A DNA stretch of 64,000 nt from Candidatus Binatus soli (GCA_002479255.1 DLMJ01000021.1:68943-132942); one strand, 5' to 3'; shown: positions 34,776 to 50,200, counted from the stretch's first letter. The notes: generated by a model not told the origin, from the sequence alone. Translations and numbers: made by a program.

Positions 34776-35597
34776 TCATTTCACTCCAATTCTGAGCCGG
34801 TAGCTCCAGAACCACGGCACGACAGCGTCGCCGAGCGCGTGGCGCGCCGCCTCACGCAACGCGGTGATCCCGATCTCATCCTCGCCGATGCCGTGCTTGA
34901 GCAGCGTAGCGATCTCGCCTTGGCTGAGCGCGAGCCCGACCAGCCGCTCCGCGCCTCCGCTCTCGACGTGATGAAGCACGACCTCCTTCACGTAACGGAA
35001 CCGCCCGCTCTGCCTGATCCTTTCCAGATGCCCGCCCTTGTTCCACTGATGGACCTCGGGCGCGAGGCGTCGCGAGCGCTCGAGCGCCTCCGCCTTTGCT
35101 CGGCATGCGTTGTAGGCCTGTTCGGCTTCAGCGTTGAGCGTCGGCGGCCAGTCGCAGTCGTAAGCGGCAAACACCCCGTTGTCGCGCAAAATGCGCGCAA
35201 CCTCGGCGAATGTGGCGTTCGGCTCCATCCAGTGCAGCGACTGCGAACAAGTCACGATGTCGGCGTATCGGTCGGGAAGGCCGGTCGCGGTCGAGAGCCC
35301 CTCGATGAACCTGACCGTGCCCGCACCGGAGTCGGCCACGCGGCGCTCATCAGCCTGCGCGCGCATGTCGGCATTGGGCTCGACCCCGACGGCCTCGGAT
35401 GCGCATCGCGTCCAGATGAGGGTCGAAAGCCCGCTGCCGCTGCCGAGATCGACGACCACGGGCCGCGGCTTTGCGGCTAGCTGCGTCAGGAGATCTACGA
35501 TGACTTCGGGCGGTCTCGGCCGGTACCTGTCGTAGAGTTCGGCGAAACCCGAGAAGCGATCGGTATTGGCGGCAACGTGGGCGCGATCGGCGCTCAT
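34776..35597 (-). CDS. Class I SAM-dependent methyltransferase
   Basis: ATG at 35597 (MSADRAHV...). It has motif I (VVDLGSGSGLST) and a post-I acidic residue. Confidence 0.75.
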   Translation of the reverse strand: MSADRAHVAANTDRFSGFAELYDRYRPRPPEVIVDLLTQLAAKPRPVVVDLGSGSGLSTLIWTRCASEAVGVEPNADMRAQADERRVADSGAGTVRFIEGLSTATGLPDRYADIVTCSQSLHWMEPNATFAEVARILRDNGVFAAYDCDWPPTLNAEAEQAYNACRAKAEALERSRRLAPEVHQWNKGGHLERIRQSGRFRYVKEVVLHHVESGGAERLVGLALSQGEIATLLKHGIGEDEIGITALREAARHALGDAVVPWFWSYRLRIGVK

Positions 35598-35735
35598 GAA
35601 GTGAACCCCCGCATGCGCCAAGTCTAGTTGCGCCGCGTTATCGAGGCGAGCGATCCGCCGTTGGCACGGCTGGCCAGTATCAAGAAAGGGAAACCCGGCG
35701 CGCTGTAATCGGACTTTTCACTCTCCCCTAACCCC

Positions 35736-35890
35736 TTTTAACAGGCCGTCAGGCCGCATCTTCTCTTTTCTCTTATCACTGGGTGCAGGGGTCACCCCTG
35801 CCCAAGGAGGTGCGGAACCCACGGTGGGTTCCGCATACAATTAAGTGATTTCCCCCCTTCCCCACTGCACGCGCGCCGCGCGCGTGCGGT
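35736..35890. repeat. Composite intergenic repeat (left inverted repeat flanking the M28 peptidase gene): AGGCCGTCAGGCCGCATCTT ... GGGTGCAGGGGTCACCCCTGC ... GGAACCCACGGTGGGTTCCGCATACAATTAAGTGATTT
   Basis: About 85% identical, in inverted orientation, to 37321–37440. Sub-modules recur at 480–545, 34715–34790, 35625–35735 and 39811–39990. Confidence 0.75.
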
Positions 35891-37284
35891 CACCCCTGCC
35901 CCTGCCAACGGCCCGCACTCACCCCGTGAGTTGACGCAATGATGCGGATAGCGGCACGGGTGACGGGCGCCAAGCTCGGGCGATGAATCTTGTCGAGCGT
36001 GTCGATCGCGTCGAAGAGGTAGAAGGGCGCCGTCAGGAAGTTGACCAGCGGCACGCCGGCAAGATGAAAGGGGCCGCCGTCGGTGGTCGGTGATGGGCCG
36101 AAGACTTCGGGCGGCAGGATCAGCGACCGCTCGAGCTGCTCGGCGACGATCGCCTCGCGCACGATAGCCTCGAGCGATGCGAGCCTGCTCGTGAACCACC
36201 AGCGCGGCTCCGGATGTCCGGAAGCTGCCAGGCCACCGTCACGCTCGACCATCTCGATGGCGGCGTGCTCGAGATGGACTTCGAGCACCACGCGAGCCAG
36301 TTCCGTCCTGTGCCGGTCGATGAACGCGTGTACTCCGGCCCCGCCGGCCATGTGCCCCGCGTTGAGGAGAAAGACCAGGCGATGCGGGCGCTCGGCCGGC
36401 GCGATGCGCGACCAGTAGCTGGCCTGCGCCAGGACCATCGATACGCCTGACGCGTCCTCGACGGCGGACGCCCACGGGCCGTCGTGATGGGAGCCGACGA
36501 TGACGCTGTCGTCGTCGGCGCCCGGGATTTCGCCAACGACGTTATAGCTGGTGATGTCGTGGCGGATCGCGCGGCTGATCAGCGTGACCTGCACGCGACC
36601 CGCGTCGCACAGCTGCCGCAGTCGCGCGCCGTCGCTGCCGCTGATCCAGACTCCGGGGATCGCGCGGGCTACGCCATCGTAGGGGACGTAGTACCGGTTC
36701 GAGTCGCCGGGGTAATCGCTCAGCACCCCTACGAATCCCACCGCCCCTGCCGCGATCGATGCGTCCATAACTGCCATCAACTGATGGCTGAACGGCAGCA
36801 CCTGGGTTGCCCCGGCAAGAGTGCCAGCCGGATCGTATCGGCGCCAACTGGTATCGGCTTCGCGTGTCACGGCGCCTGCGAGCATCAGGGGAAGATCCGC
36901 CGGAGCACGCATCAGCGGCACATCGACCAGAGCGAGCGCGCCACGGACGGCGCCGGGCGTTTCGTCACGCCACTGGACGAGCGGTGCATCGAGACCGTCA
37001 CCGTCGGTCGCCGCCGAATGCGGCAGGGAGAAACATGGGATGCGCGACTCGCGGCCATCCGCACGCACGATAATCGCCGACTCGAGCGGCTCCCAGTAAG
37101 GCAGCGTCACGGGCTCGAGCCGGACCTGCTCCAGTCCGAATTGGAGGAATTTTTCGCGGCAGAAATTCTCGGTCCATCGATCGGCCGCATACCCGGGCCG
37201 CCGCACGCCGCGGGCAAAGACGGTCTCGATCCAATCGAAGATGGTGCGCTCGTCCGGGACGAACGCCTCTTGCAGAGTACTCAT
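35890..37284 (-). CDS. M28-family peptidase with PA domain
   Basis: 464 aa. Metal-ligand context (..GSHHDGPW.., ..ED..G..) and overall M28/PA architecture. It is bracketed by the inverted repeats. Confidence 0.65.
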   Translation of the reverse strand: MSTLQEAFVPDERTIFDWIETVFARGVRRPGYAADRWTENFCREKFLQFGLEQVRLEPVTLPYWEPLESAIIVRADGRESRIPCFSLPHSAATDGDGLDAPLVQWRDETPGAVRGALALVDVPLMRAPADLPLMLAGAVTREADTSWRRYDPAGTLAGATQVLPFSHQLMAVMDASIAAGAVGFVGVLSDYPGDSNRYYVPYDGVARAIPGVWISGSDGARLRQLCDAGRVQVTLISRAIRHDITSYNVVGEIPGADDDSVIVGSHHDGPWASAVEDASGVSMVLAQASYWSRIAPAERPHRLVFLLNAGHMAGGAGVHAFIDRHRTELARVVLEVHLEHAAIEMVERDGGLAASGHPEPRWWFTSRLASLEAIVREAIVAEQLERSLILPPEVFGPSPTTDGGPFHLAGVPLVNFLTAPFYLFDAIDTLDKIHRPSLAPVTRAAIRIIASTHGVSAGRWQGQG

Positions 37285-37309
37285 TGCACTGACTCTCCCA
37301 GACGCGCGC

Positions 37310-37445
37310 AGAATAGCAAAAGTGAGAACTTAATTGTATGCGAAACCCACCGTGGGTTTCGCGCATCCTTGGGCAGGGGTAACCCCTGCACTCAATATTA
37401 AAACAAAGATGCGGCCTGACGGCCTGTTAGAACTTTTTCAGGGGG
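37310..37445. repeat. Right inverted copy of the composite repeat
   Basis: Its reverse complement aligns with 35741–35862. Confidence 0.75.
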
Positions 37446-37467
37446 AAACTGATGTGCTCTGCTGTTG

Positions 37468-37510
37468 TGTCATTCTAGAGCGAAAGCTGCTGTAGCGAAG
37501 AATCCCGGCT
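37468..37510. repeat. GTCATTCTAGAGCGAA..GCGAAGAATCCCGG repeat copy
   Basis: Same family as 22594. Confidence 0.7.
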
Positions 37511-37734
37511 CTTGCCTCGCCCGTTATTTCACGGGACGTGCCACGAGCACACGGCGGCCGAGCGCAGCGGGACAAGGTGAGGGTGAATGGCGAAGCGGTC
37601 CGCATCAGTGCCGCAGGCAACGGCCCAATCTGCGCCTTGCAATGCCGTGAGCAAAGACGAGAATACAAATCGTGGAGTGGTGGCCGCCAACAAAGATTCT
37701 TCCGATCCTCAGGTACAGGGGCACCTAAGAGGCG

Positions 37735-37836
37735 ATGGGATCAGCAAACTTCGCGCAACCGACCTTCATCGACCTGTTCTGCGGAATCGGCGGGACGCGG
37801 CTGGCGTTCGAAAGCGCAGGGTGTCGGTGCGTGTGA
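37735..37836 (+). pseudogene. dcm: N-terminal remnant (motif I) of a DNA (cytosine-5)-methyltransferase
   Basis: A 33-codon ORF translating MGSANFAQPTFIDLFCGIGGTRLAFESAGCRCV* is the canonical FxGxGG AdoMet motif I plus following residues of C5-MTases. It is truncated by a stop. Confidence 0.6.
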
Positions 37837-38019
37837 GGCTTTGTCCGCTATGGCTCTAGAAATCTATTACGAAGATGAAAATGGCGAGCATTGGGTGTGG
37901 CCCTGCAAATCGTTGGCCGAAGCCAAAGAGTTCGTGAAGCAGCTTAAACAATTCGGCTGCGTGCCAGTTCACGTCGGATAACGCGCCAAGAGTGTCTTGA
38001 AGATCATGACGGGAGAGAA

Positions 38020-38880
38020 ATGGCTTCCAAAGCAAAGTTTGGGACGCATTGGCAGAGCGATGAACTCGATGCGATTGTCGCCGACTATTTCGCCATGCTG
38101 GCGGCCAACCTTTCTGGACAGCGGTACGTCAAATCCAGCCACAGCAAGGGCCTCATGGCTCGGATAGGCCGGACGCACCATTCCATCGAATTTAAGTACC
38201 AGAACATTTCGGCGGTGTTGGATGAGTTGGGCCTGCCGTGGATTCCCGGCTACAGACCCAAGAGGAACTACCAAAGCGCGATCTTCGATGCGATTGACCG
38301 TTACCTCACGAAGCACTCCGATGTTCTCGAATCTGTCCCAATTTCACCGACACCGCCGGCATTGCCAACTGAAATCTTTGTCGCGCCGCCACCGCTCGTA
38401 TCAGTTCCTGAGCGGATTCCAGAGGGTTTAAAGCGCCTTGTCCGGAAATTTGATCCGGTCGCGCGCGATCATCGCAATCGTTCTCTTGGCAAGGCCGGCG
38501 AAGAGTTTGTCTACAATCTTGAGCGCCGACGACTCGCTGCAGTTGGCCGCTCAGACCTAAGCCAGAGGGTGCGATGGGTCGCCGCGGAAGAAGGCGATGG
38601 CGCAGGCTATGATGTCCTTTCGTTCAATACGACCGGAGGAGAGCGATTGCTGGAGGTGAAAACCACCAACGGATCCGCGCGCACCCCTTTCTTCCTGACC
38701 CGCAATGAGTGTGACGTCGCAAAGGAGCGCCCTGAGGACTGGTGCATCTATCGGGTCCACTTGTTCGCGAGGGAACCGCGTATTTTTACGATTTCGCCGC
38801 CGCTGGAACTCAAACTGGATCTCCATGCGGAGTTGTGGCGCGCCTCGTTTTACAGCCGTGCAGAGGAGAAGCGACAATGA
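38020..38880 (+). CDS. DUF3883 (NOV_C, restriction-endonuclease-like PD-(D/E)xK fold) domain protein with an uncharacterised ~150-aa N-terminal domain
   Basis: GGAGAG RBS. The C-terminal region GAGYDVLSF..GGERLLEVKTT...FFLTRNE..A....W.IYRV matches the DUF3883 core with a D...E.K triad. The region is AT-richer than the flanks. Confidence 0.7.
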   Translation: MASKAKFGTHWQSDELDAIVADYFAMLAANLSGQRYVKSSHSKGLMARIGRTHHSIEFKYQNISAVLDELGLPWIPGYRPKRNYQSAIFDAIDRYLTKHSDVLESVPISPTPPALPTEIFVAPPPLVSVPERIPEGLKRLVRKFDPVARDHRNRSLGKAGEEFVYNLERRRLAAVGRSDLSQRVRWVAAEEGDGAGYDVLSFNTTGGERLLEVKTTNGSARTPFFLTRNECDVAKERPEDWCIYRVHLFAREPRIFTISPPLELKLDLHAELWRASFYSRAEEKRQ

Positions 38881-39152
38881 GAGAGAAGCAAGCGGGTGAC
38901 TTCAAATCGGCTGCCGAGGTGGCGCAGCACGTCGAAACACTGGTTGAAGGCTGGGCTTCGGTAATCCGCTGCAAAGCCGAAAGCTTTGGCGGCACTCCGT
39001 GCGGCCGGATCGTAATGGTGGTGTTCCGCGATTTCTACCAGCCGTTAATCGGCGATGAGATAGAGGAGTGGGATTCATCGCGGGCGCTGGTGTGCGAAAA
39101 CTGTGCAACCCGCCTCGGAATGCTGGACCACGGATCCAAGAGGCGCGCATAG
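38877..39152 (+). CDS. Small Cys-rich (putative Zn-ribbon) protein translationally coupled to the DUF3883 gene
   Basis: ATGA overlap with the upstream stop. 91 aa with C..(10)..C and CENC pairs. Confidence 0.5.
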   Translation: MREKQAGDFKSAAEVAQHVETLVEGWASVIRCKAESFGGTPCGRIVMVVFRDFYQPLIGDEIEEWDSSRALVCENCATRLGMLDHGSKRRA

Positions 39153-39213
39153 CTGGCGTACTCCATCAGATGGGTACCATACCATCCGGGGTTTCAAGCG
39201 CGCGTCTTCCACT

Positions 39214-39262
39214 TTGTCATTCCGAGCGTAGCGAGAAGTCCCGGATTTTTCCGCTGCGTTTC
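39214..39262. repeat. GTCATTCCGAGCGTAGCGAGAAGTCCCGG repeat copy inserted in the vsr remnant
   Basis: Same family as 22594; it lies immediately upstream of the Vsr C-terminal fragment. Confidence 0.65.
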
Positions 39263-39328
39263 TGAGCGCTGCCGTACCTTCTTACCCTTTCCGAGCCAAA
39301 TCCGCGCCCGGGATTTCTCGCGCTGAGG

Positions 39329-39511
39329 ATGGCGCTCGAAATGACAAAAGAGGAAGCTTCGCTCGAACTCAAGCTTCAAGCCAACCGCAGGCGCGATCGT
39401 ACCGTTAACCGGCTGCTTGCTCGCGACGGCTGGGCGGTGGTCAGAATCTGGGAGCACGAGTTGAGGAAGCCAGCGCTGGTTGTAAAAAGGTTGCTGAAGG
39501 GTCTGGCTTAG
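39329..39511 (+). pseudogene. vsr: C-terminal remnant of a very-short-patch-repair (Vsr/DUF559) endonuclease
   Basis: ...LQANRRRDRTVNRLLARDGWAVVRIWEHEL... matches the Vsr C-terminus (..N.ERD.R....L...GW.VL.IWEC.L). Only about 50 codons remain. Confidence 0.6.
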
Positions 39512-39532
39512 CAGCAAAGCGCGGTCCATACC

Positions 39533-39606
39533 ATCATTCTGAGCGAAAGCTGCTGCGCGCGAATGTTCGCGGATCCGGGGTCCCTCGGCTTCGCTCGGGA
39601 TGACGG
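39533..39606. repeat. Palindromic repeat unit CATCATTCTGAGCGAAAGC...GCTTCGCTCGGGATGACGG
   Basis: Its core is shared with the other copies and its two arms are self-complementary. A further reverse-complement copy lies at 39781–39808. Confidence 0.65.
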
Positions 39607-39810
39607 AATCGGAAAGCGCGATTCGTCTTTCGTTCTCCTGAACTAAAAACGTTTCACGTGAAACATTCGTCTCTGGATCCTAGGAAATAACCCCTGTTTC
39701 GCAAAATGCGCCGTAATTGCAACGCCATCGGACGCGCGTCGGCCTCGTCCCGCGTGAGGCGAGGCCAGGAAGGAACCGGGTTCCTTCGCTGCGCTCAGGA
39801 TGACACAAAA

Positions 39811-39990
39811 AAAGTTCTAACAGGCCGTCAGGCCGCATCTTTTCTTAGCATCGGGTGCAGGGGTCACCCCTGGCCGTTGGCACGGCTGCCAGTATTAAGA
39901 GACCGCGCCCGCGGCAGTGGCCGCGCGCGACAACGGAGCGCGGCCTTAACATTGGGTGCAGGGGTCACCCCTGCTTAGTGAAAGCGGTCG
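39811..39990. repeat. Partial direct copy of the composite repeat (AGGCCGTCAGGCCGCATCTT / GGGTGCAGGGGTCACCCCTG x2 / TTGGCACGGCTGCCAGTATTAAG)
   Basis: Aligns with 35741–35800 and 35655–35680; a second GGGTGCAGGGGTCACCCCTGC hairpin lies at 39955. Confidence 0.7.
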
Positions 39991-41489
39991 TATCCCAGCC
40001 AGAGCGTCAGCAGGATAAGCGGCCTGACGATCGGTTCCTCCGCGCTGCCGATTATCCCCTCGATTGAATCGGCCGGGCCGCGTGCTTCCCGGCCCTCATC
40101 GCCGGTGTAGCTTGTGTCGGAGACGGGGAAGCCCAGTTCGCGTGCTTGGGCCAGCAGCGTGCGCGTAACGTCGGTGCCGAAATGAGGATTGATGATGAAC
40201 AGTCCCTCGTCGAGTGGGCTTACGTACTCAACGATGCCCATCTCGTAAGGCGGCGGATCGTAGCCGAGCTGATCCTCGGCAAGCGAGAAGAGGTAGTGCC
40301 CTTGCGCGGTCACGCGCGCTTCCATCGTGAGTTGCGTTTCGGGAAAAGACTCGCCCGGCACCGCGGCAAAGAAGAGCGTGCCGATTCGCACCGCGCCCAC
40401 CAGCGTGCGTATGTTGCTTTTGTTGTCCGCCATATAGGGTTCGCGGTTCGAGCGCATCACGCGATCGACACCGGCCCTTCCGTTGATCATCAGGCCCGCC
40501 AGCACAGGATTGTCGGCCGGCTCTTCGAGGATTGTTTCGGCGGTCGCGATCGGGCCGTCGATTTTCACCGCATCCGCCTCCGCTTGGAGGGCGAGCCTGG
40601 CGACGGTTGCGCCGTAGCTTTCGGCTGCCAATGGCCCGCGTGCTCCGATCGCGTTCAGATCGGGCTGGGTGCGCCCGACCGAGGCGACCATCACGAGCGC
40701 CGTCGAATCGGGATTGGCCTTCTCGACGGCTCCCACAGCCGCGGCGGGCCAATCGGGCGAGATCAGCGTATTGTCCTTGCCAAGCGCGGTGACATGCGCG
40801 CTGAAGTTGATCAGCGTCGCGAACGGCGCGCCGTCGGAACCCTTGGCGAACAGCACGCGCAGCTTGGTGTCGAGCGGATACCCGGGGAGGATGCTTCTCA
40901 GGAGATGGGACGGCGCGGTATCGATTTCGCCGGAGTACAGCGATGCCGGCCGTTCGGCGCGGATGGCAGATTCGATTGCGGCGACTGTCTGATCGGCAAC
41001 GAACTTCAAGTATTCCGCTGGTACGCCACCCCATACTCCAATGTCGTCGGGTCCGGAATGATCGTGCGTGCTGGCGATGATCATGGCGCCTTCGGGAATG
41101 CCTGTGTCTTTCGACACGCGCCGGCGGATGTCCGCAGAGCCATACGGTGCGTCGTCCCCCTGGTAGGCGAGAAAATGCCCTTGCGTGTCGATCGCGCAGA
41201 AAACCACGGTCCGTTCACCGCGCGAGATCGCGATTGCACGCGCGTAGATGGGGCTCCGGACCCCGGTCGATCGCCTGACAGGACCGAAGCCGTAACCCCC
41301 GAGATAGACCGGCGAGGTCGGCGTGATTTCGCGCTTGGATGCGCCCACGCAATATTCGCCGCTCGATTCGGAGGCCGAACAGGCGGCCGTCGTCGCCGCC
41401 CCCGCAACCGGCTTGGACGCGCCGAACCAAAGCACGCATGCAGCGGCGGCCAGAATCGCCCGATGAATCTTTGGCGATGCGCGCACCAT
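39975..41489 (-). CDS. Neutral/alkaline ceramidase-family secreted hydrolase
   Basis: Signal peptide from M at 41489 (the ORF track extends to 41537). Motifs ..YLGGYGFG..R...G....IYARA and THDHSGP resemble the neutral ceramidase N-domain. Confidence 0.65.
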   Translation of the reverse strand: MVRASPKIHRAILAAAACVLWFGASKPVAGAATTAACSASESSGEYCVGASKREITPTSPVYLGGYGFGPVRRSTGVRSPIYARAIAISRGERTVVFCAIDTQGHFLAYQGDDAPYGSADIRRRVSKDTGIPEGAMIIASTHDHSGPDDIGVWGGVPAEYLKFVADQTVAAIESAIRAERPASLYSGEIDTAPSHLLRSILPGYPLDTKLRVLFAKGSDGAPFATLINFSAHVTALGKDNTLISPDWPAAAVGAVEKANPDSTALVMVASVGRTQPDLNAIGARGPLAAESYGATVARLALQAEADAVKIDGPIATAETILEEPADNPVLAGLMINGRAGVDRVMRSNREPYMADNKSNIRTLVGAVRIGTLFFAAVPGESFPETQLTMEARVTAQGHYLFSLAEDQLGYDPPPYEMGIVEYVSPLDEGLFIINPHFGTDVTRTLLAQARELGFPVSDTSYTGDEGREARGPADSIEGIIGSAEEPIVRPLILLTLWLGYDRFH

Positions 41490-41580
41490 CTCGGCGGGAA
41501 GCTCCCTGCTGGTTCCGAGTTCGGATCGTAATTTCAACGCGTCAGATCTTTCCGACCCGGCCGCGCGCGTATCTGAACAT

Positions 41581-49063: not shown

Positions 49064-50200
49064 TCAACCCTGGCACAAGCGCCAGGTCTTGCCGCCGTCC
49101 TCGGTGTAAAGGATGGTGCCGTAGCCGACGATCCATCCGTGCTGCGCGTCGAAGAACCGCACCTGGCTGAGCGGGAACGGTATCGCGGGCACGGTCGGAT
49201 CATGCGCCCATGCGCCGTTGGACTGAAGGCGCAGCACGGCGCCCGTCAGTCCGGTAGTGATTCCCTGGTCGCCGGCAAACAGATCGATCGAGAACAGCGG
49301 ATCGCGCGCTGGAATCTGCACCGCTCCCGGCACCAGCGTGTCAGGCTCCGCGCCCGGCTGGTCCGACTGATGGGCAAACCGCCAGCTCTTGCCGCCGTCG
49401 TCGGTCTGCACCACCCATCCCTCGAGTCCGCACGCCGCGCCATGCTTTTGATCGCGGAACGAGACGCTGAATAAAGTCGGCAGGATAAAATCGGCGAAGC
49501 GCGGATCGTCGCCGGGTCCGAGCGGACGTTTCCATTGCGCCACCAGCGGTTGCTGCTGCTCATCCCAGCTCTTGCCGCCATTTTCGGTCGCCCAGATTCG
49601 CCCCAACTCGCCGACCACCCATCCGTGATCGACGTCGAGGAAACTCGCACTGTACAGAATCGGCTCCTCGTACGGCAGCGCGTAGTCGGCCAGCTCCTGC
49701 GGAAAAAGCCGCTGCAACTGGCGCTTGATGAAACTCTCGCCGCCGTTGGTCGTGCTCATCACCAGCGCGCGGTCGCCGACAAAGAAGCCATGAAGCGCGT
49801 CGGGAAACGACAGGCCGAAAATGAACAGGTGGGTTCGCGAGTTGAGCCGCTCCCAGCTCTTGCCGCCGTCGCGCGTGCGCATCACGAGGCCGTCCTGCCC
49901 GCACAGGTAGCCGTTCTGATCGTCGGCCATCTGGATTCCGAAGATGCCCAGGCTGGTGCCGATGTCGATCCGCTTGAAATGACGGCCGCCGTCCTCGGTC
50001 AACAGCACCTTGCCCCGATCGCCGACGACAAATGCGCGCGTCGGGCTGGTCGGCCATACATCGAAAAACTTGTCGGTCAGCGTGATATTGGGAAGCGGCA
50101 ACGGCGGGAGTGCAACTTGCCGATGACACGCAGCGGTCGCGAGCGCGATTAGAGCAAATAGGGTCTTGATTAAGCTGTATGCACGGAGGTTTCGCTCCAT
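49064..50200 (-). CDS. Ycf48/BNR-like beta-propeller lipoprotein
   Basis: Lipobox-like signal (ALATAACH). It has repeated ..DGGK(S/T)W.. blades (TEDGGRHF, TRDGGKSW, TENGGKSW, TDDGGKSW, TEDGGKTW). Confidence 0.7.
   Translation of the reverse strand: MERNLRAYSLIKTLFALIALATAACHRQVALPPLPLPNITLTDKFFDVWPTSPTRAFVVGDRGKVLLTEDGGRHFKRIDIGTSLGIFGIQMADDQNGYLCGQDGLVMRTRDGGKSWERLNSRTHLFIFGLSFPDALHGFFVGDRALVMSTTNGGESFIKRQLQRLFPQELADYALPYEEPILYSASFLDVDHGWVVGELGRIWATENGGKSWDEQQQPLVAQWKRPLGPGDDPRFADFILPTLFSVSFRDQKHGAACGLEGWVVQTDDGGKSWRFAHQSDQPGAEPDTLVPGAVQIPARDPLFSIDLFAGDQGITTGLTGAVLRLQSNGAWAHDPTVPAIPFPLSQVRFFDAQHGWIVGYGTILYTEDGGKTWRLCQG

Follow-up and report, generated by a model that had tools for sequence, protein, structure and literature searches.

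How did the two ends of a dcm–vsr operon come to enclose an intact nuclease gene, and what would such a gene do once its partners have been reduced to stubs? The question is raised by a 64,000-nt stretch of DNA from Candidatus Binatus soli, referred to below as the window, in which a piece of a C5-cytosine methyltransferase (methylase) gene, dcm, and a piece of vsr lie on either side of a gene for a DUF3883/NOV_C protein with a predicted PD-(D/E)xK nuclease site. The explanation considered probable here is that this protein is a defence nuclease that works independently of a methylase and has outlived its dcm and vsr partners, the island around it being the decayed form of an imported 5-methylcytosine (5mC) methylase/Vsr module. 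A preliminary description of the locus had pictured an old dcm–vsr module, resident at this site and replaced there by a foreign cassette.

The methylase remnant is a 33-codon open reading frame (ORF) on the plus strand at 37735-37836 (FIDLFCGIGGTRLAFESAGCRCV), in which the AdoMet-binding motif I (F-x-G-x-G) is present as FIDLFCGIGG at residues 11-20 and is followed by a stop at the end of the 33 codons. Its assignment as a dcm relic is genuine, as first claimed: it matched positions 2-25 of Pfam PF00145 DNA_methylase (E 8.4e-6; 25.9 bits against a gathering cut-off of 22) and NCBIfam dcm TIGR00675 (E 3.4e-5). A six-frame translation of the window, in 1,367 segments, was used for a window-wide scan for dcm and vsr. 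A 94-codon dcm fragment from locus L005, which runs from motif I to GFPCQPFS (motif IV) and then stops, found 37735-37833 as its sole match (E 1.3e-12), with 73% identity over 33 residues and ~88% in a 26-codon core. The catalytic motif IV (P-C-Q), motifs VI-X and the target-recognition domain are absent, and no other dcm was found in the 64-kb window. The dcm sequence here is a relic that encodes no working methyltransferase, with ~90% of dcm gone.

The vsr relic, representing the last ~45 codons of its gene, lies on the same strand at 39368-39511, in a 60-codon ORF that as called runs from 39329 to 39511 and ends in DRTVNRLLARDGWAVVRIWEHEL. It too proved genuine, with a Vsr-like part narrower than the ORF first proposed: this part is limited to residues ~14-58 (nt ~39368-39500), and the first codons come from a palindromic repeat. 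The ORF matched positions 89-119 of 119 of NCBIfam vsr TIGR00632 (E 2.5e-7) and positions 89-132 of 141 of a local Vsr hidden Markov model built from neighbouring loci (E 1.5e-6; the sole match in the six-frame translation of the window), and the Vsr C-terminal segment N-x2-RD-x10-GW-x-V-x3-WE is present in ANRRRDRTVNRLLARDGWAVVRIWEHEL. The Pfam Vsr model left this C-terminal stretch unmatched, the Pfam matches being to the related MTES_1575 and DUF559 families. Profile positions 1-88, the N-terminal two-thirds with the catalytic and Zn-binding residues, were unmatched in any frame.

The small palindromic repeat, 39213-39348 (GTCATTCCGAGCG... / ...CGCTCGAAATGAC), abuts the 5' end of the vsr relic and has 16-nt inverted arms at 39213-39228 and 39333-39348; related copies begin at 39587 and 39787, and the element also occurs in L011. 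It occupies the place expected for the missing part of Vsr, and no Vsr-like frame was found upstream of it. The gene is therefore truncated, with its first two-thirds lost, and not merely interrupted by a repeat as had been suggested.

Both relics belong to one operon-shaped unit on the plus strand, 37634-39515, which begins ~100 nt before the dcm start and ends a little beyond the vsr stop. It holds, in order, the dcm 5' piece (33 codons), a 43-codon ORF (orf43), the DUF3883 nuclease gene, a gene for a four-Cys protein, the small repeat and the vsr 3' piece (~45 codons). Two Binatus-like genomes carry the same unit: window 37634-39043 is 95-97% identical to loci L010 and L011, and window 39094-39515, which includes the small repeat and the vsr stub, shares 94.8% identity with L011; outside the shared stretches no match was found between the window and these loci. 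In both genomes its place is between oppC and oppD, with opposite orientations. The dcm relic has the same 33 codons, frame and stop in the window, L010 and L011. A sister unit, in a third context in L005 and L013, comprises the 94-codon dcm fragment, a different small ORF, the nuclease gene and a gene for a 93-aa Cys protein; compared with the window, its nuclease is 76% identical, its dcm piece 81% (nucleotide) and its genes 77%.

The history of the unit at its present site was read from alignments to an empty site in L101. Window 37087-37345 aligns with L101 6198-5940 and window 39857-40203 with L101 5939-5600; the end points in L101 are adjacent, and window 37346-39856 is therefore a single, clean insertion of ~2.5 kb. 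A metagenome scan with the M28 peptidase encoded beside the island gave 33 orthologous loci. The preliminary description had proposed looking in related genomes for an intact dcm–vsr; the alignments gave empty spacers or other cargo, no dcm or vsr was found at the ceramidase-M28 site in any of the relatives' loci, and dcm, vsr and DUF3883 were all absent from the cargo at the occupied sites. Since the relics lie inside the insertion and the same relic junctions recur at the opp site, the relics arrived with the cassette.

The nuclease gene (38020-38880, plus strand) is intact and encodes 286 aa, predicted to form an N-terminal three-helix domain resembling a helix-turn-helix (HTH), a linker and a C-terminal DUF3883/NOV_C domain of the PD-(D/E)xK type. 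Residues 160-258 matched PF13020 (NOV_C; E 7.9e-21), and residues 8-277 matched positions 4-279 of 280 of the PADLOC candidate PDC-S36 (E 4.3e-106). The nuclease of the cassette called uncharacterised was already listed, as a candidate to which no function has been ascribed. Conservation was assessed in 74 sequences, 35-81% identical to the window protein. The predicted catalytic triad D198, E212, K214 is invariant among them, and in the third helix, EFKxQNIS, residues E57, K59, N62 and S64 are invariant or nearly so. With dN/dS of 0.10-0.14 at dS 0.7-1.9, the gene is under purifying selection.

Structure prediction gave a confident two-domain model, in which the C-domain resembles Hjc, I-Ssp6803I and NhoI and the N-domain is homeodomain-like. 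Foldseek searches against PDB and viral structures gave no match at E <= 0.001, a profile search against PDB sequences gave a chance match only (E 0.02), and no solved structure with the same two-domain architecture was found by the PDB sequence and fold searches. The family is large, with 4,853 matches in a 90%-clustered database and 770 representatives at 50% identity (E <= 1e-30). Ten longer members with N-terminal extensions gave NOV_C alone in Pfam, as did the window protein. The family is a known candidate, and its architecture is so far undescribed for DUF3883 enzymes.

The genes that accompany the nuclease elsewhere were surveyed in 81 loci, namely 80 species genomes and the window, vsr being scored from -5 to +3.5 kb around the nuclease gene. 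A whole or partial vsr is near the nuclease in 42 of the 81, and it is partial in at least 10 loci with an intact nuclease. A full-length profile detected dcm in 16 loci, and a 5' fragment of dcm lies directly upstream of the nuclease in 17, which together make ~27 of 81; ~33 loci have neither dcm nor vsr. The nuclease family is a regular dcm/vsr neighbour in many Acidobacteriota and Binatia genomes, and the cassette cannot be called foreign to these genes, as it had been.

Three arrangements recur. In the first, (a), found in L018, L024, L028, L039 and L045, the order is RHH-dcm-vsr-nuclease with spacers of a few bases (4-11 nt); an intact cognate methylase stands beside the nuclease at these loci and is absent in the window. 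In the second, (b), a dcm 5' fragment is followed by the nuclease, an HNH gene and a full vsr (L053, L055, L058, L059, L062, L069, L071 and others), and the gene order of the window is of this kind. In type (c) loci another candidate restriction gene, DUF4928, adjoins dcm. Often the stop codon upstream runs directly into the nuclease start (TAAATG). In L019, a single frame at ~-874 to -176 from the nuclease start joins vsr residues ~4-113 to the C-terminal motifs of dcm, implying an ancestral vsr-dcm-nuclease order followed by an internal deletion.

The family is also found on 1,212 PLSDB plasmids, 472 of them in E. coli and 318 in Klebsiella, and 881 are conjugative. Neither dcm nor vsr was found beside the nuclease at the two plasmid loci inspected (p1108-NDM and Sphingobium p1); in Sphingobium p1 the nuclease gene follows a HEPN gene. 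The relative on E. coli p1108-NDM (NZ_MG825381.1; L144 5716-6852) has 378 aa, is ~41% identical to the window protein and lies in an IS26-ISCfr1 interval of a multi-resistance region. The putative recognition helix is the same in nucleases from loci with four different dcm types, which presumably differ in specificity, and this constancy argues against a specificity matched to each methylase.

Comparison of the window with L010 and L011 showed that the unit is a mosaic. The stretch upstream of dcm is 64% identical to L010 and 87% to L011, and the dcm relic 81% and 93%, respectively. The centre, 37837-39043, is 98.5-100% identical to L010 and 95-100% to L011 (99-100% from orf43 through the nuclease, 95% in the 5' part of the Cys gene); the vsr relic is absent in L010 and 89.5% identical in L011. 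Synonymous divergence is 0.02-0.035 in the nuclease gene and 0.18-0.64 in the dcm relic. The mismatches change in gradients, not steps, thinning through the second half of the dcm relic and returning only over the final ~50 nt of the vsr relic. Such a pattern is what homologous recombination leaves when it replaces one allele by another, and the alignments place its crossovers inside the relics. Another crossover falls within the Cys gene near 39043; at that point L010 and L011 change over to the variant that accompanies McrBC.

These observations are brought together as follows. The 2.5-kb island was acquired horizontally at the ceramidase-M28 hotspot, and its core unit is probably the remnant of a 5mC methylase/Vsr module with the nuclease as partner, in which the methylase and vsr genes decayed and selection kept the nuclease. 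The unit had decayed already on reaching its present site, and its centre is still exchanged among Binatus-like genomes by homologous recombination, through crossovers in both relics. The anatomy of the locus, its history and the gene association can be taken as shown. We infer an activity, a target and a role in defence for the nuclease: it would bind DNA through the homeodomain-like HTH domain and cut it with the PD-(D/E)xK site (D198, E212, K214). It would need no cognate methylase for protection of the host, and it most likely acts as a stand-alone defence endonuclease of the Type IV (modification-dependent) kind, for which MspJI is the model. A stand-alone defence nuclease is favoured because the gene often survives loss of the methylase, which a classical restriction enzyme cannot do, because the putative recognition helix is constant across dcm types, and because MspJI, the YenY4I/McaZI group and McrBC in the opp slot offer parallels. 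That the enzyme works without a cognate protecting methylase is suggested by comparative evidence only.

Several points weigh against this explanation. The compact RHH-dcm-vsr-nuclease operons might represent classical Type II systems in which this protein would be the restriction enzyme. In models, the N-domain resembles an ordinary HTH and none of the known modified-base sensors (SRA, PUA/EVE, DUF3427, McrB-N or winged helix). Literature searches for PDC-S36 and for DUF3883 with defence brought up no functional work on this architecture. In L141-143 the opp slot holds McrBC in the position of the nuclease, adjoining the same Cys gene, and occupation of the same slot is weak evidence of a shared function. 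The dcm relic has an open frame and a low dN/dS (0.19-0.23 against L010/L011 and 0.05 against L005, from small numbers), suggesting either that it diverged within a working gene or that it is constrained itself. Such an excess of synonymous over non-synonymous change was unexpected for a dead sequence.

The most troublesome point is the way in which dcm is truncated. Wherever dcm sequence lies directly upstream of the nuclease (17 of 17 loci), what is present is a 5' fragment that terminates close to the start of the nuclease gene, and full-length dcm occurs only where vsr or other genes intervene. The truncated genes span four unrelated dcm types with at least seven junctions: that of the window (codon 33), that of L005 (after motif IV), that of L012, three in the LLDLFCCAGG type and that of L067. 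Simple random decay leaves it unexplained that the upstream dcm is always truncated at its 3' end; on one reading, deletions must spare the operon promoter and translational coupling.

The same pattern is what a homing-like selfish cassette would produce. Such a cassette would act on dcm–vsr operons, take the place of the 3' portion of dcm and the 5' portion of vsr, and spread by recombination through the remaining gene ends; the invasion would not have taken place at the present chromosomal site, and the split operon itself would be the vehicle. The 5' fragments in 17 of 17 loci, of four unrelated types and with at least seven junctions, are in most cases followed downstream by vsr or its 3' stub, and the shared unit spans exactly the region from upstream of dcm to the vsr stop. 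A young centre between older relic arms, with gradients in both relics, is expected from co-conversion; the dcm relics combine low dN/dS with high dS, as if they had diverged in working genes before being cut; and the invariant putative recognition helix suggests one conserved target. Nevertheless, this origin seems unlikely. Full-length dcm-vsr-nuclease operons exist in L018, L024, L028, L039 and L045, and a cutter of dcm or vsr would not adjoin intact copies. L019 has a 3' fragment of dcm, not a 5' one, before the nuclease. The searches recovered no uninvaded dcm–vsr allele that would match the relic arms; the nearest dcm matches were all short fragments. The gene is carried by 1,212 plasmids, 472 of them in E. 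coli, and the chromosome of E. coli K-12 carries dcm–vsr, which counts against a cassette of this kind. The accessory genes beside the nuclease vary by lineage, and ordinary allele replacement between islands that were already split yields the same mosaic.

Quite improbable is the view that the protein is a classical Type II enzyme whose cognate dcm methylase was lost here, leaving a gene that is inactive or a host protected by a methylase encoded elsewhere. The RHH-dcm-vsr-nuclease layout with 4-11-nt spacers, in which RHH is controller-like, would suit such a system, and in an archaeal REBASE survey DUF3883 is classed as a presumed Type II R group (PMC10609329). However, an adjacent methylase is missing in ~33 of the 81 loci and at both inspected plasmid loci, and the gene shows purifying selection and intact catalytic residues. 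In addition, the putative recognition helix is constant across methylase types, and DUF4928 in type (c) loci already supplies a candidate restriction gene beside dcm.

A role in very-short-patch repair, or in another repair or recombination function together with Vsr, appears very improbable. It would account for vsr being the commonest neighbour (42 of 81 loci) and for its being intact in some dozen loci where dcm is truncated, and it is in keeping with Holliday-junction resolvases as the best structural matches of the model and with the putative DNA-binding helix conserved across the family. Against it, the gene is retained where vsr is missing or incomplete, fits a PADLOC model for defence candidates, and is found in variable mobile islands and on conjugative and resistance plasmids, beside HEPN, WYL, McrBC or Schlafen-type genes. 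Finally, the original description, in which a foreign two-gene cassette opened or replaced a dcm–vsr operon resident at this very site, is scarcely credible. In its favour, the relics stand on either side of the cassette in the order and orientation that it would predict, and the site is a hotspot. However, the relics lie inside the 2.5-kb insertion and have a GC content nearer to that of the island than to that of the flanks, neither dcm nor vsr was found at the site in any relative, and the junctions are identical at the opp operon in L010 and L011.

The nearest known counterpart of the favoured defence nuclease is MspJI. Its system, M.MspJIP-V.MspJIP-MspJI, is modification-dependent; the methylase and vsr genes are kept or lost among its homologues, and its authors proposed that the methylase becomes dispensable and decays (PMC2938202). 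Like MspJI, the enzyme described here combines a nuclease of the PD-(D/E)xK type with a separate N-terminal DNA-binding domain, is encoded beside C5 methylase and vsr genes, and has kept this association in some cases and lost it in others, here among 81 loci. Unlike MspJI, which has Mrr_cat and an SRA-like base-flipping N-domain, it is predicted to have DUF3883/NOV_C and a three-helix HTH-like N-domain.

DUF3883 is the catalytic domain of the modification-dependent YenY4I/McaZI group, some members of which are encoded beside C5 methylases (PMC6765204). The catalytic domain is thus shared with that group, as is the occurrence of stand-alone genes in defence islands, some adjoining C5 methylases. 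YenY4I and McaZI differ in carrying PUA and/or DUF3427 sensors in proteins of ~600 aa, compared with 286 aa and an unrelated helical N-domain here. PDC-S36 in PADLOC-DB v2 is a single-gene phage-defence candidate of bioinformatic origin, which the nuclease matches over its full length; the entry is apparently without a dcm/vsr link or a relic structure.

As in E. coli dcm–vsr and vsr-bearing Type II 5mC systems, the relics represent the 5' end of dcm and the 3' end of vsr in operon order. Unlike in E. coli, ~90% of dcm, including the catalytic Cys motif, and about two-thirds of vsr are gone, and the nuclease lies between them. The locus also resembles free-standing homing endonuclease genes (T4 seg/mob; I-Ssp6803I), in which a small nuclease gene lies in a host operon with a young centre and older flanks. 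Unlike homing genes, the nuclease family is also common where no dcm–vsr is adjacent.

The island lies between two host genes on the minus strand, an M28 peptidase gene (35890-37284) and a ceramidase-like gene (39975-41537), and all of its ORFs are on the plus strand. The spacer between these genes is a repeat-rich, variable hotspot, as the preliminary description had proposed: in relatives it is either empty (108 nt in L099, 57 nt in L103, 176 nt in L101/L102) or filled with unrelated cargo (2.5 kb in L096, L110, L113 and L114; 2.3 kb in L104; 3.5 kb in L094; 3.7 kb in L111). The cargo of L104 (3725-6000) encodes a Schlafen AlbA_2 protein and that of L111 (2308-6000) a 1,091-aa repeat protein. 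L094 (2039-5577) has ORFs of 294, 177 and 193 aa without a significant Pfam match, together with a partial duplicate of the M28 5' end, and an alternative cargo occupies L096 3471-6000.

The GC content is 0.64-0.67 in the flanking genes, 0.49-0.59 in the cassette genes, 0.62 in the dcm relic and 0.59 in the vsr relic; it is 0.571 for the island at 37439-39808 and 0.616 for the window. The gap between the relics is indeed lower in GC than the flanks, as had been noticed, but the lower GC belongs to the whole island, relics included, and not to the gap alone.

Flanking repeats also exist as described, although they bracket the whole island. A dispersed repeat of ~110 nt, resembling repetitive extragenic palindromes or miniature inverted-repeat transposable elements (MITEs), is present in three copies in the 64-kb window: a left bounding copy (37328-37438), a right bounding copy inverted relative to it (39809-39875) and a third on the far side of the M28 gene (35736-35846). 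A perfect 34-nt inverted repeat, 37405-37438 and 39809-39842, encloses the island including the relics, and the bounding arms are 88% complementary across 68 nt; the arms at 35767-35846 and 37328-37407 (80 nt) are 86% complementary. Terminal inverted repeats are thus present, as expected of a MITE-bounded element (34 nt perfect). No target-site duplication was seen: the empty-site alignments abut without overlap, and only a resident palindrome, GCAGGG..CCCTG, is doubled, with one copy in the empty site and one at each end of the insert in the window.

The ~110-nt element borders other cargo at the same site in L094, L096 and L104. Likewise, the outer parts of the insert, 37346-37633 and 39516-39856, consist of repeats that also border the other cargos, and 39570-39718 shares 98% identity with a stretch of L096. 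The 34-nt inverted repeats were considered as the ends of a mobile unit and rejected, since they are missing at the opp site in L010 and L011 and border other cargo here; the bounding repeats therefore belong to the site and not to the unit. Within the ~110-nt repeat, the palindrome GTGCAGGGGTCACCCCTGC is restricted in the window to the surroundings of the M28 gene and the island, including the stretch 39941-39976. Short palindromic repeats of the GTCATTCYGAGCG type are clustered in the non-coding parts of the island (37470-37492, 39216-39233, 39531-39604 and 39787-39804), and only one weak match, at 49966, was found elsewhere in the window.

A second hotspot was observed at the oppC-oppD spacer of three Binatus-like genomes (L010 5220-7540, L011 5157-7683 and L141 736-5639). 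The slot of L141 holds McrB-McrC, then the same Cys gene and then a toxin-antitoxin-like pair. Both L010 and L141 have an inverted copy of the dcm upstream stretch (window 37634-37744) downstream of the Cys gene. L012, whose nuclease is the closest non-identical relative of the window protein (81% identity), has two different vsr C-terminal stubs in tandem downstream of the nuclease, at 2038-2265 and 2205-2408; upstream of the nuclease it has a third-type dcm fragment and then a 92-aa ORF.

Two small genes complete the unit. The cassette between the relics does contain the intact, coupled DUF3883/NOV_C and Cys-protein pair that had been recognized, together with a third ORF that had been overlooked, orf43 (37850-37981, plus strand). 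Its 43 codons have the lowest GC of the island (0.485) and are conserved in L010 and L011, with 95-98% identity in protein and 98.5-99% in nucleotide sequence; no Pfam, NCBIfam or PADLOC match was obtained, and its position is taken by a different small ORF in L005 and L012. The four-Cys protein (38877-39152, plus strand; 91 aa) has a start that overlaps the nuclease stop (ATGA). C32, C42, C73 and C76 are invariant and dN/dS is ~0.2. Its family comprises 15 clusters, and those with a source name are all from Binatus or Binataceae. An AlphaFold model of the 91-aa protein (pLDDT 52) was unusable. An obligate partnership between the four-Cys protein and the nuclease was rejected, for this protein also follows McrBC and is missing from most loci. 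An Rfam scan of 35500-40200 (E <= 0.1) found no RNA family, and a promoter and terminator consensus scan of the island gave no more sites than shuffled sequences.

The locus is instructive, though ordinary, as a probable example of a defence module that has decayed to its nuclease. An abundant candidate defence gene, PDC-S36, with ~4,850 homologues in 770 clusters and present on 1,212 plasmids including resistance plasmids of E. coli and Klebsiella, is linked here to 5mC methylase/Vsr modules and would gain a testable function, that of a methylase-independent, possibly modification-dependent endonuclease with a homeodomain-like reader. The island would then be a clear natural example of the kind of decay suggested for MspJI, with the nuclease retained as methylase and vsr erode, and decayed shells of this kind can serve as homology arms for the exchange of defence cargo between genomes. 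If the truncated upstream dcm genes were to reflect targeted invasion, the split dcm–vsr shells with their four dcm types would be footprints of a homing-like process and not of random decay, and they would represent a new kind of conflict between defence genes.

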